Shown one piece after another: positions 39,773-45,677 of a stretch of DNA of 64,000 bases; position 1 is the first letter of the stretch; every line of letters begins with the position of its first letter. The notes beneath the pieces are model-generated. The model did not search any database, was not told the DNA's origin, and saw only the letters and a list, made by a program, of their open reading frames with translations. Source of the DNA: Promethearchaeia archaeon (GTDB taxonomy: Archaea; Asgardarchaeota; Lokiarchaeia; Sigyniarchaeales; SOKP01); the NCBI GenBank assembly GCA_029856145.1, contig JAHQWK010000001.1, forward strand, positions 465,731-529,730, given 5' to 3'. Both the position numbers and the translations under genes were made by a program.

Positions 39773-40567
39773 TTAATGTGGATTTAATAACTTATAAGCT
39801 TCAATCACTTTAGGGATTTGATCTTTAAAATAGTCTAATGAATGTGAATCAGATCCAACAAAAAATTCTACTCCTTCTTTCCTTAACTGCTTCATAACAC
39901 TCATGGATGGAAATGATCTATTTATTGGAAATCGCAATCCAGATAAATTTAATTCTACTTTTATTTTGTTTTTTATACATAGGCGACCTAAATCTATTAC
40001 TCGATTATCAGATACATCACAATCATCTGTAGGTATGCAATCATTATTATTAATATAACGAAAGATAGTATCAATATGACAGATATTTTTAAAAATTTGC
40101 GAGTTAATCATTTTTGTACTTAATTCAAAATAATTATCTATAATCTGTTTCATTGGAATTTTTTCTAACAATTTTGTTAACCCCTCTCTTGTTGTAATGG
40201 GATATCCAATTATCCATTCGTGAATAGATCCTCCAATAAAATCAAATTCTTTCCCATAATCATCCATAAATTCAATTAATTGAATCTCTTTACTCTCATA
40301 GTATTCAATTTCTAAGCCACTGAGTATGAAATCATATGTTTCTTTATATATATCGATCTCTTCAAGATAATCATTAACTCTTCCATTATAAAAGGGATTA
40401 GTCTTGTCATTTTCCACATAATAAAGTTCATAATGGTCAAGAAAACAGACATTAATTTGGTGTTCTTCAGCAACTTTTATATAATCTTCAAAAGTAGGAC
40501 CGTCTTGTGCCACATCTCCGCTCCAATTTCTAGTATGAACATGAAAATCTGTAAATTTAAACTTCAT
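39773..40567 (-). CDS. PHP-domain phosphoesterase (HisJ-family histidinol-phosphatase-like)
   Basis: N-terminal DFHVHT, internal GGSIHE, ICHIDT and GSDSHS metal-ligand motifs typical of the PHP/HisJ family. Confidence 0.72.
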   Translation of the reverse strand: MKFKFTDFHVHTRNWSGDVAQDGPTFEDYIKVAEEHQINVCFLDHYELYYVENDKTNPFYNGRVNDYLEEIDIYKETYDFILSGLEIEYYESKEIQLIEFMDDYGKEFDFIGGSIHEWIIGYPITTREGLTKLLEKIPMKQIIDNYFELSTKMINSQIFKNICHIDTIFRYINNNDCIPTDDCDVSDNRVIDLGRLCIKNKIKVELNLSGLRFPINRSFPSMSVMKQLRKEGVEFFVGSDSHSLDYFKDQIPKVIEAYKLLNPH

Positions 40568-40616: not shown

Positions 40617-42521
40617 TCAACTAATTGAATCTTCTTTATCAAAAAAAACTCTGTAAAACAGTTCTTTTTCACCTATATCTGGCGGAGTTATCTTAGTATA
40701 GCCTCCCTTATGAATAACACGAATTGTTTCTTTATTTTGAATGTGTATATTTCCATAGAATCCCTTTATACCTTTTTCCTTAGCAACAATAATTATATGT
40801 TGATATAGAAATGTACCAATACCCTTTCCTCGATAATCTTCCCTAACTAAAAAGCTATATTCCGCCATATTCATTTGAGGGTTTAAATAATATGTAGCAC
40901 TTCCTATCATTTCTTCTTTTCCAATTTCCCCAATAAATGCTCCTAGTGAAAAAACATTATGATAATCAATATTAACTTCACTCTGAGTTTTTGAATGTGT
41001 GAATTCTTTTCTAAGCTCAAAAAATCGTAAATATCTATCTCTTTCATTTAATGAATAATACAATTCTTTAAGGACTTGTTCATCTGTAGTTTTAACAGGT
41101 CGAATATTAATTTTTTCTCTATCTCTTGTTGTATAAATGGTTTCGTATTCTGAAGGATATAAACAAATTCGACCATCATCATCACAAGGAAGCATCTGAT
41201 CAGAAAATATATAATTCAATTTTTTAGCTTCGTCTAATAATGATTGTCGGAATTTTGGGTGAGCTATACAAATCAACTCAAGCACTCTTTCACGAATAGT
41301 TTTACCATGAAGGTATGCCACACCCCATTCAGTCACAATATAATGAACATCACCACGAGATAACAATATTCCTGCTCCTTCATCTAGATGAGGCACAATT
41401 CGTGATTTTTCACCATCTCTAGATGTTGAAGGTATTATTATAATGGGTTTTCCTCCTTTAGAAAATGCTGCACCCCTCATAAAATCAATAGTTTCACCTA
41501 ATCCCGAATAAAAACTGTAACCCTCAGTAGCAGCATTTACTTGTCCAGTCAAATCAATTTGTCTAGCAGAATTGACAGAGACCATTTTTTTATTCATTCC
41601 AATGTATCTAGGATTACATACATAATCAGATGGAAAAAATTCTATATAGGGATTATTGTCTACAAAATCATATAATTTTTTTGTTCCTAAAGCAAAACTA
41701 GTAAGAATTTTTTCAGGATGGAAATTCTTTTTTCTACAAGTCAATACTCCGTTTTCAATGAGTGGTATTACATTGTCTGTAATATAATGAGAATGCATTC
41801 CAAGATCTCTTTTATCCTTTAGAAATTTTAAGCTTGCATTTGGTAAGTCACCAAAACCTATATGAATCGTAGATTTATTTTCTATTATGTTTGCAAGATT
41901 TTTTCCGATTCTTTCAGCTATTTCATCAGGCTCATCAAAAATAAATTCTAATAACGGTGTGTCATTAAAGACAAAAAAATCAATTTCTTTCATATGTATG
42001 AAACTATTTCCTAAAGTTCGCGGCATTTGTGGGTTAATTTCAACAATAGTGATATAGGATGATTGAGCTATTGGCTTCGCAATATCTACATTAATCCCTA
42101 AAGAGCAAAAACCATAGGGATCTGGGGGAGAAACTTGTATAAGGGCAACATCGATATGTTTCTTACCAGTTAGAAATAAAGATGGAATTTCACTAGTAAA
42201 AATAGGTGTATAGTCTGCTTGACCTTTGTTAATTTCCTCTCTAAGAGTTTTTCCAATAAAAAATGCATTATGTCTAAAGAGATCCTCTGCCTTATCCTTA
42301 AAATATTTTTCTGGACCTATAGTTAAGAAGTGAAGTATTTCAGTATCAATTAATTTCTCTGAGTGTTTAATCAATTCTGATGTTAGTAACTGTGGCTCTG
42401 AACATCCAGAATCAATAAAAACTCTATTTCCAGGAATTATTTTTTTAATTGCTTCCTCTGCTGTTATTTCCTTATCTTTCCATTTTTCTCTCCAGTCTTC
42501 TTTCATAATATTAGATTTCAC
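40617..42521 (-). CDS. Fusion protein: acetyl-CoA hydrolase/transferase-family domain (aa 1 to ~470) plus a C-terminal Pat-type GNAT acetyltransferase (aa 471-634)
   Basis: The N-terminal part has CoA-transferase family I-like blocks (GNRVFIDSGCSEPQ, GINVD, SVNSARQIDLTGQV, GLGETIDFMRGA). The C-terminal part (40620..41111) has INIRPVKTTDE...RYLRFF...IDYHN...AEYSFLVREDYRGKGIG, the pattern of the GNAT domain of bacterial Pat/YfiQ. Confidence 0.82.
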   Translation of the reverse strand: MKSNIMKEDWREKWKDKEITAEEAIKKIIPGNRVFIDSGCSEPQLLTSELIKHSEKLIDTEILHFLTIGPEKYFKDKAEDLFRHNAFFIGKTLREEINKGQADYTPIFTSEIPSLFLTGKKHIDVALIQVSPPDPYGFCSLGINVDIAKPIAQSSYITIVEINPQMPRTLGNSFIHMKEIDFFVFNDTPLLEFIFDEPDEIAERIGKNLANIIENKSTIHIGFGDLPNASLKFLKDKRDLGMHSHYITDNVIPLIENGVLTCRKKNFHPEKILTSFALGTKKLYDFVDNNPYIEFFPSDYVCNPRYIGMNKKMVSVNSARQIDLTGQVNAATEGYSFYSGLGETIDFMRGAAFSKGGKPIIIIPSTSRDGEKSRIVPHLDEGAGILLSRGDVHYIVTEWGVAYLHGKTIRERVLELICIAHPKFRQSLLDEAKKLNYIFSDQMLPCDDDGRICLYPSEYETIYTTRDREKINIRPVKTTDEQVLKELYYSLNERDRYLRFFELRKEFTHSKTQSEVNIDYHNVFSLGAFIGEIGKEEMIGSATYYLNPQMNMAEYSFLVREDYRGKGIGTFLYQHIIIVAKEKGIKGFYGNIHIQNKETIRVIHKGGYTKITPPDIGEKELFYRVFFDKEDSIS

Positions 42522-42798
42522 CTTTTATTCTAGTTTAATTTAATTCTTTAAAATATAAATATAATCTCCAGTCTCTTTATTAATTGTATTATCATCAATA
42601 TAATGTTTTTGAAATTATAAATAAAATGTTTAAATTCAATTCTATATATCTCTCAATTGATTCAAATCTGTCCATTTAAATCTAAAAGGTTTAAATGTGA
42701 TGTGTATAAAAAAAAATCTTTAAAATGGTTAAAGAATTTATTAAAATTAGAATTCTAAATAATATAAATTGACTGAAAATTTGTTTAAGTGAAGAATT

Positions 42799-44781
42799 AT
42801 GTCAGAAGAAGATAAGAAAATGGAAAGTATTCTAACAGAGACTCGTAAATTCGACCCAGTTAAACTAAACGAGAAGTTTGCGAAAACTGGCATGTCTTTT
42901 GAAGAATATAAGAATCTATATAAGCAATCAATAGAAGATATGGAAGGTTTCTGGGGAGAACAAGCTAAATCTCTTGATTGGTTCAAACCCTATGAAAAAG
43001 TTTGGGAAAAAACCGATCTATTTCCTGGTAAGTGGTTTATTGGCGGTAAACTTAACGTTGCTTACAATTGCCTTGATAGGCATGTAAAAAATGGAAAAGG
43101 TGATCAAGCAGCTCTTATTTGGGAAGCTGATGAGCCCGGACAGATTAAATCTTATACTTATAAAGAATTACTTGCTGAAGTAAGTAAAACTGCAAATGCT
43201 ATGAAAAAAGTTGGATTAAAAAAAGGCGATAGAGTCACAATTTGGCTTCCTATGATTCCTGAATTGGCAATTATTATGTTAGCATGCGCTCGAATTGGCG
43301 TTATTCATTCAATTGTTTTTGGTGGCTTTTCTAAAGAAGCAGTAAAAGATAGAATTGAGGATTCTGATTCTCGATTACTCTTCACAAGTGATGAAACAGC
43401 ACGTGCGGGTAAATTTTACCCCAAAATAGCTGATGTAGTCCAGATCATTAATGATGTACCAACGATTGAGCATGTCATTGTTGTAAAGCGAACTGGAAGA
43501 GACGTACCTCATACTGAAAAAGATATCTGGTATCACGACTTCATTGAAGGAATGAGTGAGGAATGTGAGCCTGAAATGATGGACTCTGAAGATACACTAT
43601 TCATTCTTTATACAAGTGGAACTACTGGAAAACCCAAGGGCGTTAATCATACTACAGCAGGCTATATATTATTTACATCTATTACCCATAAAATCGTATT
43701 TAATTACCATGAAGGTGATATCTGGTATTGTACTGCAGATATTGGTTGGATTACAGGTCATTCTTATATTGTATATGGACCTTTAGCTAATGGTGCTACT
43801 TCATTAATGTTTGAGGGAGTTCCAACTTATCCTGATGTTGATCGTTTCTGGGATATTGTAGAACGTCATAAAGTGACTCATTTCTATACAGCTCCTACTG
43901 CAATTCGTGCTATAATGAGATATGGTGATGATCATGTTAACAAGCATGATCTTAGTTCATTAAAAGTCCTAGGTACTGTTGGAGAACCTATAAATCCCGA
44001 AGCATGGACATGGTATCATAGAGTTGTTGGAAAAGAGAAATGTCCTATAGTTGATACTTACTGGCAAACTGAAACCGGGGGGTTTATTATGACCCCAATC
44101 GCTACAGCAACACCCACAAAACCTGGGTCTTGTTGTCTACCATTTTTAGGTATTAAACCAATCATTTTCGATTTAGAAGGGGATGAAATTACAGAACCAA
44201 ACGAAGGTGGATACTTTGCAATTGCTCAAAGTTGGCCGGGTATGTTACGTGATGTTTGGGGTGATACTGAGAGATTTAAATCAACTTATCTCGAAAAATA
44301 TCCAGGATATTATTATACTGGTGATGGAGCACGACGAGATGAAGATGGTTATTATTGGATTTTAGGTAGACTTGATGATGTTATTAAAGTATCTGGACAT
44401 AGAATAGGAACCATGGAAGTAGAATCTGCTCTTGTAAGTCATCCAAAAGTAGCTGAAGCAGCAATTGCCCCATTTCCCCATAAAATTAAAGGGCAGGCAA
44501 TATGGGCGTATGTTACTTTAATGCAAGGAGTTGAAAAATCTGCTAAATTATCCAAAGAAATTAGAATGCATGTTAGACAAGAAATTGGGCCTGTATTTCA
44601 ACCAGACGTTATTCAATTTGCTGATGCCTTGCCTAAGACGAGAAGTGGTAAGATAATGAGAAGAATATTAAAAGCTATTGCCGCTGGCACGAATATTGGA
44701 AATGTTACAACATTAGCTGATCCCTCTGTAGTAGATGCTTTACTTGAAGAACGTAAAAAGATGGATGTTGAAATAGGTTAA
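42799..44781 (+). CDS. acs: Acetyl-CoA synthetase (AMP-forming)
   Basis: YTSGTTGKPKG (A3), WWQTETGG-like YWQTETGG, YYTGDGARRDEDGYYWILGRLDDVIKVSGHRIG, and C-terminal A10 motif PKTRSGKIMRR. The regulatory/catalytic Lys (K618) is at 44650..44652. Confidence 0.97.
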   Translation: MSEEDKKMESILTETRKFDPVKLNEKFAKTGMSFEEYKNLYKQSIEDMEGFWGEQAKSLDWFKPYEKVWEKTDLFPGKWFIGGKLNVAYNCLDRHVKNGKGDQAALIWEADEPGQIKSYTYKELLAEVSKTANAMKKVGLKKGDRVTIWLPMIPELAIIMLACARIGVIHSIVFGGFSKEAVKDRIEDSDSRLLFTSDETARAGKFYPKIADVVQIINDVPTIEHVIVVKRTGRDVPHTEKDIWYHDFIEGMSEECEPEMMDSEDTLFILYTSGTTGKPKGVNHTTAGYILFTSITHKIVFNYHEGDIWYCTADIGWITGHSYIVYGPLANGATSLMFEGVPTYPDVDRFWDIVERHKVTHFYTAPTAIRAIMRYGDDHVNKHDLSSLKVLGTVGEPINPEAWTWYHRVVGKEKCPIVDTYWQTETGGFIMTPIATATPTKPGSCCLPFLGIKPIIFDLEGDEITEPNEGGYFAIAQSWPGMLRDVWGDTERFKSTYLEKYPGYYYTGDGARRDEDGYYWILGRLDDVIKVSGHRIGTMEVESALVSHPKVAEAAIAPFPHKIKGQAIWAYVTLMQGVEKSAKLSKEIRMHVRQEIGPVFQPDVIQFADALPKTRSGKIMRRILKAIAAGTNIGNVTTLADPSVVDALLEERKKMDVEIG

Positions 44782-44787
44782 ATTATA

Positions 44788-44809
44788 TTTTTATTTTATA
44801 TTTTTTTTT
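44788..44809 (+). terminator. Oligo-T tracts (T5 ... T9) after the acs stop
   Basis: atatTTTTTattttataTTTTTTTTTaa starts 7 nt after the TAA at 44779..44781. Confidence 0.45.
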
Positions 44810-44834
44810 AATTTTTAAAAAATCCAATTTTTCC

Positions 44835-45677
44835 TCAACCTTTTGCAAAAGTACCTATTATGTATAGTAAATCTAATTCCTTATTAATATCTTTTCCCAA
44901 TATCATCTTTACACTGGCTCTATTTTCTAGTTCAGTTAAATTGAACAATTCAAAAATCCTTTTTGGGAAGTATTGATGTTTAGCAATAATCATATGATCA
45001 GCTTCTAATGCAATACTCTTATTAATTATCTGTGATGCTGCATCTAAATTCGTGGCAATTAATGGGCCTAACCGCTTATTCGCCACTAATCCATATCCTT
45101 CATTTTCAATAATTAAAATCCTAGCACCCAATTTAATTCTCATGGTTAAATAATTAGTTCTATTAAATCCCATTGCTTTCTTATCTAGAGCTAACACCCA
45201 GTCCGGAACTGTATTTAAAACCTTTACCTCTTTATTTGCAATTCCTAATTTTGGAGGTTGTATTGGTAAATGATACATCACCCCATAAAATCTTCTTTTA
45301 AAACCAAATTTTTTATAGATGGGTTCTCCTAATTTGGAAGCATAAAGTATCATTGTCTCGCAATTCATTTTATTTGCAATTCCTACTAAATTTCTAAAAA
45401 TTTCTGTGCCTACTCCTCTTCCTCTGTATTCTTTCAACACAACCATATATCCAAAACTACTAACTTTTTCAAATATAAAAACCCCACCCACACCAATAAT
45501 CTTTCCTTTCTCTTCAGAAATAAGGAATTTTCCAATTTTCCATTTTATTAAAGCCTTCCATATTTTTTCTTCTTCTTGAATACTCGCTGGAGGAGCTCTA
45601 CCAAAAGCAGAATAGAGTACATTTATACATTTGGAAATTTCTTCGTCTGCTGGTTCTCTAATAGTATATTTAAACAT
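44835..45677 (-). CDS. GNAT-family N-acetyltransferase with a C-terminal accessory domain
   Basis: Motif A VVLKEYRGRGVGTEIF (R/Q-x-x-G-x-G/A) in the first ~150 aa, then a ~130-aa second domain. Confidence 0.78.
   Translation of the reverse strand: MFKYTIREPADEEISKCINVLYSAFGRAPPASIQEEEKIWKALIKWKIGKFLISEEKGKIIGVGGVFIFEKVSSFGYMVVLKEYRGRGVGTEIFRNLVGIANKMNCETMILYASKLGEPIYKKFGFKRRFYGVMYHLPIQPPKLGIANKEVKVLNTVPDWVLALDKKAMGFNRTNYLTMRIKLGARILIIENEGYGLVANKRLGPLIATNLDAASQIINKSIALEADHMIIAKHQYFPKRIFELFNLTELENRASVKMILGKDINKELDLLYIIGTFAKG

Follow-up and report, generated by a model that had tools for sequence, protein, structure and literature searches.

A Pat-type acetyltransferase joined to a CoA-transferase-like domain beside acs in an Asgard archaeon: a probable lysine acetyltransferase of Acs in which a pseudo-enzyme serves as regulatory domain

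The 64,000-nucleotide stretch of a Promethearchaeia genome analysed here (the window; contig JAHQWK010000001.1, positions 465,731 to 529,730) contains a gene in which a coenzyme A (CoA)-transferase-like domain is fused to a GNAT acetyltransferase domain, and which lies beside acs, the gene for AMP-forming acetyl-CoA synthetase (Acs). The fusion gene (40617..42521, minus strand) is an open reading frame of 634 codons whose product comprises, by Pfam, the CoA-transferase-like domain, a linker and a GNAT domain of the type found in the protein acetyltransferase Pat. The acs gene (42799..44781, plus strand; 660 amino acids; open reading frame matching TIGR02188), which encodes the proposed substrate, is divergent from it. 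An intergenic region of 277 bp with 17% G+C (42522..42798) separates the two and is the presumed site of both promoters. A second GNAT gene, gnat2 (open reading frame at 44835..45677, minus strand; 280 amino acids), lies 53 nucleotides from the acs stop codon. The coordinates of the three genes, the divergent spacer and the 53-nucleotide gap were all given in a preliminary description of the locus and hold on the sequence. The listed start codon of the fusion gene is GTG, and an ATG at 42506, five codons on, is the start of many homologues. The protein may therefore be 629 amino acids long, in which case the spacer to acs would be 292 bp instead of 277 bp.

The N-terminal domain of the fusion protein (residues 10-436; 41214..42494, minus strand) belongs by alignment and by Foldseek comparison to the 4-hydroxybutyrate CoA-transferase family, and is proposed to have a regulatory or sensory role. 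Pfam families PF02550 (E-value 2e-28) and PF13336 (3e-59), which make up the acetyl-CoA hydrolase/transferase family, match across residues 10-432, and the domain aligns over its full length with the solved structures 9VAG, 3EH7 and 3GK7 (E-values 2e-116 to 6e-100). An AlphaFold2 model of the protein (pLDDT 86.9, pTM 0.82) gives target TM-scores of 0.92-0.94 between this domain and 4-hydroxybutyrate CoA-transferases in Foldseek, where only CoA-transferases are matched. The earlier claim of a CoA-transferase-family domain fused to a GNAT is borne out by the Pfam scan, which finds both halves. The claim that the large domain has a CoA-enzyme fold different from that of Pat likewise stands. All 120 homologues among the matches listed, which are 74-92% identical to the fusion protein, share its Pfam domains.

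Enzymes of this family follow a ping-pong mechanism that proceeds via a glutamyl-CoA thioester (PMC3180442). The active-site glutamate is E238 in 3GK7, and CoA forms hydrogen bonds with Ile216, in the QxGhG loop, and with Gln337, in the GGQ motif (PMC11659651). The fusion protein has the two-lobed alpha/beta fold and the two Pfam domains of a family I CoA-transferase and lacks the catalytic glutamate, the QxGhG loop and the GGQ motif. In the alignment, H245 (41787..41789, minus strand) occupies the position of the nucleophile E238, H220 (41862..41864, minus strand) replaces the glutamine of the active-site loop (Q213 of 3GK7), and E343-T344 (41490..41495, minus strand) replaces the second glycine and the glutamine of the GGQ motif (G336 and Q337 of 3GK7). 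The loop and motif thus read HIGFG and GET, where the canonical sequences are QLGIG and GGQ. Another glutamate, in an NSxxE-x-DL motif, was considered as the catalytic residue and ruled out: 3GK7 has glutamine there, and the nucleophile E238 established in the literature lies in H(S/T)E.

These changes are uniform among close relatives. A set of 80 related loci from named genomes comprises 66 members of the same clade (70-94% identical) and 14 distant fusions (44-51%). The glutamate is absent in all 66 clade members, which mostly have histidine and in a few cases tyrosine or leucine in its place, between nearly unchanged flanks. The clade consensus is (H/S)xGxG for the loop and G(E/D)(T/A/N) for the motif, and position 343 is acidic (E or D) in every member. 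All 14 distant fusions retain the glutamate and GGQ, and their loop reads QxG(I/Y)G; they come from Thermoplasmata, Chthonomonadales, Phycisphaera, WOR-3, Desulfobulbia and one Promethearchaeota genome. Twelve of the 158 sites that are conserved in both groups differ between them, including Q344T and the residue next to the lost nucleophile. Clade members share on average 0.83-0.84 pairwise identity over the transferase-like domain and 0.81 over the GNAT domain. Judged from these values, the N-terminal domain is under strong purifying selection. Because it is conserved like the GNAT and its motifs are lost, the fold appears to be what selection maintains, with the catalytic apparatus gone.

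With the glutamate absent and the CoA-contacting motifs altered, the domain should be unable to perform canonical ping-pong CoA transfer, and we conclude with high confidence from the alignment that the canonical mechanism is absent from the fusion protein. This result strengthens the suggestion, made before the residues had been compared, that the domain is a sensor and not an enzyme. Position 245 tolerates histidine, tyrosine and leucine, so a new catalytic role there is not expected. The same variation fails to support a new metal site of the 2-His-1-carboxylate kind formed by H220, H245 and E343, which was also considered.

It is quite improbable that the domain is still an enzyme, namely an acyl-CoA hydrolase or transferase that supplies or uses up the acyl donor of the GNAT and has a relocated or different nucleophile (for example E/D343 or a histidine). 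A Glu-to-Asp change is enough to make glutaconate CoA-transferase a hydrolase. The very strong conservation of the domain and the acidic residue that all 66 clade members carry at position 343, in the old active-site loop, would fit such an enzyme, and a CoA-transferase without the canonical glutamate, ThnP, has been described (PMC11659651). However, three separate catalytic or CoA-contacting motifs have changed together, and free exchange of E and D at position 343 and of H, Y and L at position 245 would be unusual for precisely placed catalytic residues. Motif loss is also common and varied across the fusions and rarer in stand-alone enzymes. The glutamate is kept in 40 of 68 fusion clusters, compared with 45 of 56 stand-alone transferases, and all three motifs are kept in 15 of the fusions, compared with 37 of the stand-alone enzymes (p = 1e-6).

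The C-terminal part of the protein is a Pat-type GNAT domain (residues 471-612; 40686..41111, minus strand) according to matches in PDB and NCBIfam and to Foldseek. A linker of residues 437-470 (41112..41213, minus strand) joins it to the transferase-like domain; this is the least conserved segment of the protein, with a mean identity of 0.68 in the clade, yet it is modelled at pLDDT 75-90. The Pfam GNAT family PF00583 matches residues 507-605 (E-value 2e-11), and the top NCBIfam match is the mycobacterial Pat model. The best solved relative in a PDB sequence search is the GNAT domain of Streptomyces lividans PatA (SlPatA; 6e-15). An 886-residue Pat chain named Escherichia coli PatZ (9IT0) matches at 1e-12, and the Pat proteins of Sulfolobus and Mycobacterium tuberculosis are also among the best solved relatives (3F8K and 4ORF; the others are 4NXY and 9IT0). 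For the GNAT of the model, the top Foldseek match is 4U5Y (target TM-score 0.90; root-mean-square deviation 2.2 Å), a structure of the SlPat GNAT with an Acs C-terminal domain bound to it. The preliminary assignment of the GNAT as Pat-type is thus borne out by both sequence and fold.

The residues expected of an active GNAT are present. E554 (40860..40862, minus strand), in AEYSFLV, aligns with E123 of SlPatA and E809 of PatZ (aligned stretches AEVAFLV and AEFAVLV) and is invariant in the alignment (A1); the catalytic role of the matching glutamates is stated in PMC12184503. The acetyl-CoA-binding P-loop, R564-G-K-G-I-G569, is intact and fits the pattern R/Q-x-x-G-x-G/A. Taken with the Pat matches in sequence and fold, these residues indicate that the GNAT is Pat-type and looks catalytically competent. 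In 63-66 of the 68 fusion clusters, among them 24 of the 28 that lack the transferase glutamate, the GNAT retains the residues for catalysis and CoA binding: position 554 is E or D in 64, Asn596 is present in 66 and the P-loop is conserved in 63-65. The constancy of these residues beside decaying transferase motifs suggests that the GNAT is the constant catalytic element of the family and that transferase catalysis is dispensable.

GNATs are functionally diverse, and perhaps this one acetylates a small molecule (an amine, an amino acid or a polyamine) in a pathway fed by Acs, with the N-terminal domain binding the substrate. Weaker NCBIfam and PDB matches of the GNAT half to phosphinothricin- and arsinothricin-type N-acetyltransferases point in this direction, and the HDAC fold, which occurs in some relatives described below, also includes acetylpolyamine amidohydrolases. 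We regard this possibility as highly improbable. The best matches in sequence and in fold all belong to the Pat group of protein acetyltransferases, the Pat-specific N-terminal segment (RP...D...Y.RFF) is conserved, with R474, P475 and R499 kept in 58-65 of the 68 clusters, and the HDAC domains of the relatives are nearest to class-I protein deacetylases, not to polyamine amidohydrolases.

The neighbouring Acs scores 959 bits on TIGR02188, for which the cut-off is 725 bits, and is the only true Acs in the genome, since the next-best AMP-forming ligase is 29% identical. Its A10-motif catalytic lysine, K618 (44650..44652, plus strand), lies in LPKTRSGKIMRR (PKTRSGKIMRR) and is the proposed acetylation site. 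The lysine is intact, as the preliminary description had stated, and each of the 62 fusion-linked Acs proteins examined has the motif, which is to be expected of any Acs. Because this lysine is catalytic in every Acs, the motif is uninformative as to whether Acs is acetylated, and it was rejected as proof that Acs is the substrate.

The gnat2 product, which had been proposed as a further partner, consists of a GNAT and an Acetyltransf_18 domain. Its only strong solved relative is 3DDD (6e-35), an uncharacterised two-domain acetyltransferase, and gnat2 is near acs in just 7 of 26 related loci. It was rejected as part of the system on these two grounds. No SIR2 or HDAC gene is present on the contig that contains the window, in agreement with the earlier remark that no deacetylase is visible in the window itself, and a search of the whole genome reveals three SIR2-type and four HDAC-type loci elsewhere.

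The acs gene is a nearly constant neighbour of the fusion within the clade. Among 51 informative clade loci, it is divergently upstream in 48 (within 1 kb in 34), downstream in one and absent in two. The spacing to the fusion is 212-300 bp in 20 of the 48 and reaches up to 5.8 kb in the rest. However, a synteny control restricted to the 26 loci with full flanks finds that unrelated genes on the downstream side are retained about as often: acs is kept in 25 loci, the PHP, PAP2 and GTPase genes in 24 each and the TFB gene in 23. Retention falls to just 4-8 of the 26 loci for the genes beyond acs. Because unrelated neighbours are kept as often, acs adjacency within the clade reads as inherited gene order. 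The divergent pairing, which had been taken to connect the two genes, consequently loses its value as specific evidence within the clade, and the control led us to reject within-clade adjacency as proof of functional linkage.

Linkage outside the clade provides independent support, and the survey of fusion and acs co-localisation proposed earlier finds it in several lineages. In three of eight distant genomes (one Thermoplasmata and two Chthonomonadales), the gene immediately upstream of the fusion, in the same direction, is the best Acs match of its genome. Two further Thermoplasmatota loci have an upstream, co-directional acs, and in another six acs lies no more than about 5 kb away. In Asgard family f31, acs is divergent from a fusion that retains the glutamate in 8 of 11 loci, and in family f28 it adjoins the fusion in convergent orientation. 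On a tree of the family, acs-adjacent fusions occur in at least five separate clades, in co-directional, divergent and convergent orders. One f31 locus (L137:2946-11867) contains acs and, between it and the divergent Glu-retaining fusion, a gene of the GPR1/FUN34/YaaH acetate-channel family, with an H+-pyrophosphatase gene about 2 kb beyond, which gives it the look of an acetate-use module; Acs releases pyrophosphate.

Other fusions are associated with a different acetyl-CoA synthetase. Of 40 Thermoplasmatota loci, 25 (L107, L130 and 23 others) have a co-directional cluster of the fusion with genes for a full ADP-forming acetyl-CoA synthetase and an AAA_26/DRTGG protein, usually in the order fusion, synthetase and DRTGG (Pta N-terminal-like) protein. 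The synthetases have CoA_binding_2, Succ_CoA_lig, Ligase_CoA_2 and ATP-grasp_5 domains, and the phospho-histidine motif SHTGSLAG is kept in the L130 synthetase, the representative that was read. A synthetase gene also follows the fusion in four loci of Asgard families f16 and f28 (L152, L154, L155 and L158), three of them with a DRTGG gene, and in a WOR-3 bacterium (L089). Since the neighbour is acs or the ADP-forming synthetase according to lineage, the family appears to track either acetyl-CoA synthetase, and because neighbours differ by clade, targets may differ between clades. The genome analysed here has a synthetase-DRTGG pair without a fusion (contig C13, about 109.7-112.9 kb).

Some relatives carry a deacetylase domain in the same polypeptide. 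Triple fusions of CoA-transferase-like, GNAT and HDAC domains, about 955-1026 amino acids long, are found as two 50%-identity cluster representatives (P0158 and P0174) and in two Thermoplasmatota genomes (L163:654-3689 and L164:3497-6577). The nucleophile position holds aspartate in three of them, including both Thermoplasmatota proteins, and glycine in P0174. The HDAC part is nearest to the class-I deacetylases HDAC1, HDAC2, HDAC3, HDAC8, RPD3 and HDLP (E-value 1.5e-66). This fusion and the family-wide links to acetyl-CoA synthetases favour the idea, put forward in outline in the preliminary description, of reversible protein acetylation at the acetate node. A 445-residue protein composed of four tandem AMP-binding_C repeats (the C-terminal domain of Acs) is encoded 2.4 kb downstream of one triple fusion (P0271; L163:6061-7398). 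Its last repeat ends in LPRTETRKTLRSIL, resembling the A10 lysine motif, and the protein may be an acetyl acceptor or a decoy. Such proteins are not found near other fusions, and the idea of a recurrent partner was dropped.

Considered as a whole, the fusion protein is very likely, on the residues and folds described above, a Pat-like protein-lysine acetyltransferase with a domain incapable of canonical CoA transfer, and it is probably an Acs-directed lysine acetyltransferase in which that domain is a pseudo-enzyme regulatory module. In the mechanism that we propose, the transferase-like domain would act as does the inactive ADP-forming-synthetase-like domain of Pat, and would gate the GNAT by binding CoA, an acyl-CoA or a related acid, or through oligomerisation or substrate docking. 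The GNAT would then acetylate K618 of the neighbouring Acs and so stop the activation of acetate while CoA thioesters are abundant, and the mark would be removed by a sirtuin or an HDAC-type deacetylase from among those found at other loci of the genome. We infer by reasoning that K618 of Acs would be the target and acyl-CoA or CoA the signal. The entire chain, from a Pat-like GNAT through a regulatory pseudo-transferase and K618 as target to reversal, has in our estimate an even chance of being correct in full.

Several points weigh against this proposal. Within the clade, acs is no better kept than the unrelated PHP, PAP2, GTPase and TFB genes, and the gene order there may simply be inherited. 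Many fusions of the family adjoin the ADP-forming synthetase or neither enzyme. Acs acetylation is not predictable from sequence, and SlPatA, which has the closest GNAT, fails to acetylate its own Acs in vitro (PMC4053389). In the N-terminal domain, the invariant acidic residue 343 in the old active-site loop could be a relocated nucleophile, and the CoA-contacting Q337 is replaced, next to the one internal part of the model with low confidence (the loop of residues 332-340), which makes acetyl-CoA an uncertain ligand.

The points concerning gene order, neighbours and SlPatA also favour a protein acetyltransferase for which Acs is not the main substrate, and which instead modifies other acyl-CoA enzymes, chromatin proteins or, like PatZ, many targets. 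The acs gene would then be a neighbour only by inherited gene order or through a shared acetate regulon. Most Thermoplasmatota fusions adjoin the ADP-forming synthetase, and Glu-retaining Asgard paralogues of families f1, f3 and f4 adjoin neither enzyme, in keeping with this alternative. We consider it unlikely. The adjacency to acs recurs in at least five separate clades and three orientations, the fusion adjoins the best Acs match of the genome in three distant genomes, and the closest GNAT structure was solved with an Acs C-terminal domain bound.

The acs-linked, Glu-less copy appears to derive from a Glu-retaining fusion. A second fusion in the same genome (contig C9:142478-144277; L090:8422-10329, minus strand) is 53% identical to the first and keeps the IQMGIG, HSE and GGQ sequences; it is surrounded by unrelated genes and is not near acs. 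These genes encode a DNA glycosylase, a B12/radical-SAM protein, TatD, a methyltransferase, a TetR regulator and a Ras-like GTPase. The P-loop of the paralogue's GNAT reads RGLGIT. Across 400 surveyed genomes of the phylum, the only family with the Glu-less type is that of the window organism. All matches from the other families share about 40-57% identity with the window protein or with its paralogue, and the other-family fusions examined all keep the glutamate, except for one family-f32 sequence with cysteine. In a maximum-likelihood tree (quick search, LG+G4; deep nodes are poorly resolved), the Glu-less clade is on a long, fully supported stem of 0.62 substitutions per site, nested among Glu-retaining Asgard paralogues of the same order. 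The acs-linked copy may therefore have arisen by duplication of a Glu-retaining fusion within this order, and would then have evolved fast and lost catalysis in one family. One contig labelled Candidatus Nanopelagicaceae bacterium (L041; DATKTW010000124.1) contains a fusion with the Glu-less motifs that is 84% identical to the Asgard clade; it is probably mis-binned.

Reversible acetylation of Acs is a textbook case of metabolic control by protein acetylation, and the known writers carry a handful of regulatory modules. Bacterial GNAT lysine acetyltransferases have been classified into five types, none of them with a CoA-transferase domain (PMC8556138; PMC12184503). In Pat, the regulatory domain is an inactive homologue of ADP-forming synthetases that binds acetyl-CoA (dissociation constant 290 nM) and activates the GNAT (PMC8556138; PMC12184503), which makes it the closest functional analogy to the N-terminal domain of the fusion. 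The Type I enzymes Pat and PatZ (YfiQ) of Salmonella enterica and E. coli, which act together with the sirtuin CobB and for which Acs is the classic target, share with the fusion a C-terminal Pat-type GNAT with the same glutamate and P-loop, and a large N-terminal domain that is derived from a CoA-thioester enzyme and lacks its catalytic residue. However, the regulatory domain of the fusion has a family I CoA-transferase fold of about 430 residues, whereas that of Type I Pat has an ADP-forming acyl-CoA-synthetase fold of about 700 residues. The fusion is also archaeal, in contrast to the bacterial enzymes.

Type II PatA of S. lividans has the GNAT closest to that of the fusion, in sequence (6e-15) and in fold (4NXY and 4U5Y; target TM-scores 0.87-0.90). 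In PatA, the GNAT precedes an inactive ADP-forming-synthetase-like domain, so the fusion differs in domain order and in regulatory fold; its regulatory domain lacks the homology to ADP-forming acyl-CoA synthetases that marks Types I and II. Unlike Type II PatA, the fusion has no collagen-like region visible in the Pfam scan or the model. The ligand-gated GNATs of Type III (mycobacterial cAMP-Pat, ACT-GNAT and the NADP-binding MxKat) also place a Pat-type GNAT under the control of an N-terminal small-molecule-binding domain and include Acs among their known targets, with a sensor fold different from that of the fusion.

The acsA/acuABC locus of Bacillus subtilis resembles the window in having an acetyltransferase gene divergent from acs, and the relatives with a class-I HDAC domain mirror its pairing of AcuA (a GNAT) with AcuC (HDAC-type). 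AcuA, however, is a single-domain GNAT of a different subgroup, and no deacetylase or AcuB-like gene adjoins the window genes, so that the arrangement of an acetyltransferase and an HDAC-type deacetylase beside acs is absent and deacetylase fusions occur only in distant relatives. The 4-hydroxybutyrate CoA-transferases (AbfT/Cat2; 3GK7, 3EH7, 2OAS and 9VAG) share full-length homology and fold with the N-terminal domain. Unlike them, the fusion lacks E238, Q213 and G336-Q337 and has an added C-terminal GNAT, and canonical CoA transfer is not expected of it.

The fusion is thus a new variant design beside the known kinds of Pat, absent from the acetyltransferase classifications compared (PMC8556138; PMC12184503). 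The literature searched contains no description of the CoA-transferase-GNAT architecture, which does not prove its absence from all literature. It would add the CoA-transferase fold, widespread in archaea and bacteria in this setting and annotated only automatically, as a new regulatory module. The Asgard clade represents a natural experiment, in which the acs-linked copy lost transferase catalysis and the paralogue in the same genome keeps the catalytic motifs; comparing the two would separate an enzyme used as a sensor from a binding-only sensor. The locus also provides a directly testable candidate for acetylation control of archaeal central metabolism, a field in which little is known. In metabolic reconstructions of Asgard archaea, the gene should be read neither as a CoA-transferase for 4-hydroxybutyrate or acetate nor as an acetyl-CoA hydrolase. 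The literature searched contains no paper on Lokiarchaeota that names 4-hydroxybutyrate CoA-transferase.

A broader reading, which we offer as a rather unlikely speculation, is that the CoA-transferase-GNATs are a widespread class of their own, the sixth, among the lysine acetyltransferases of prokaryotes, and control AMP-forming as well as ADP-forming acetyl-CoA synthetases. As part of this single claim, the module would range from a working enzyme, whose loading with CoA reports the ratio of acyl-CoA to acid, to a pure pseudo-enzyme sensor such as that of this Asgard clade. The order in which the fusion is followed by the ADP-forming synthetase, found in archaea and bacteria, could be ancestral, and joining of these two genes with inactivation of the synthetase would then have produced the classical Pat. 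If this reading is true, acetylation control of an ADP-forming acetyl-CoA synthetase would itself be new.

Several architectural variants of the family were also observed. P0124 and P0126, 50%-identity cluster representatives about 960 amino acids long, have an extra N-terminal region of ~340 residues with 4Fe-4S dicluster motifs before a Glu-less CoA-transferase-GNAT, which suggests a redox input in some members. In P0248 (703 amino acids), a CoA-transferase of this family that retains the glutamate is joined to an enoyl-CoA hydratase domain and not to a GNAT; this fusion is plainly metabolic and provides a useful contrast to those with a GNAT. Frames of ~1050 amino acids in three Thermoplasmatota genomes (G154:C43, G085:C85 and G182:C40) match only residues 1-453 of the fusion.

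Other genes near the fusion in the window encode a TFB, an Arf/Rag-like GTPase, a Roadblock protein and a HEAT-repeat protein, a gene content that points to an Asgard archaeon of Loki type. A 264-residue protein is encoded directly downstream of the fusion (39773-40567, minus strand) and is kept in 24 of 26 related loci. It has no significant Pfam match, the only hit being DUF7588 below threshold, and its N-terminal DFHVH sequence hints at a PHP-like metal hydrolase.

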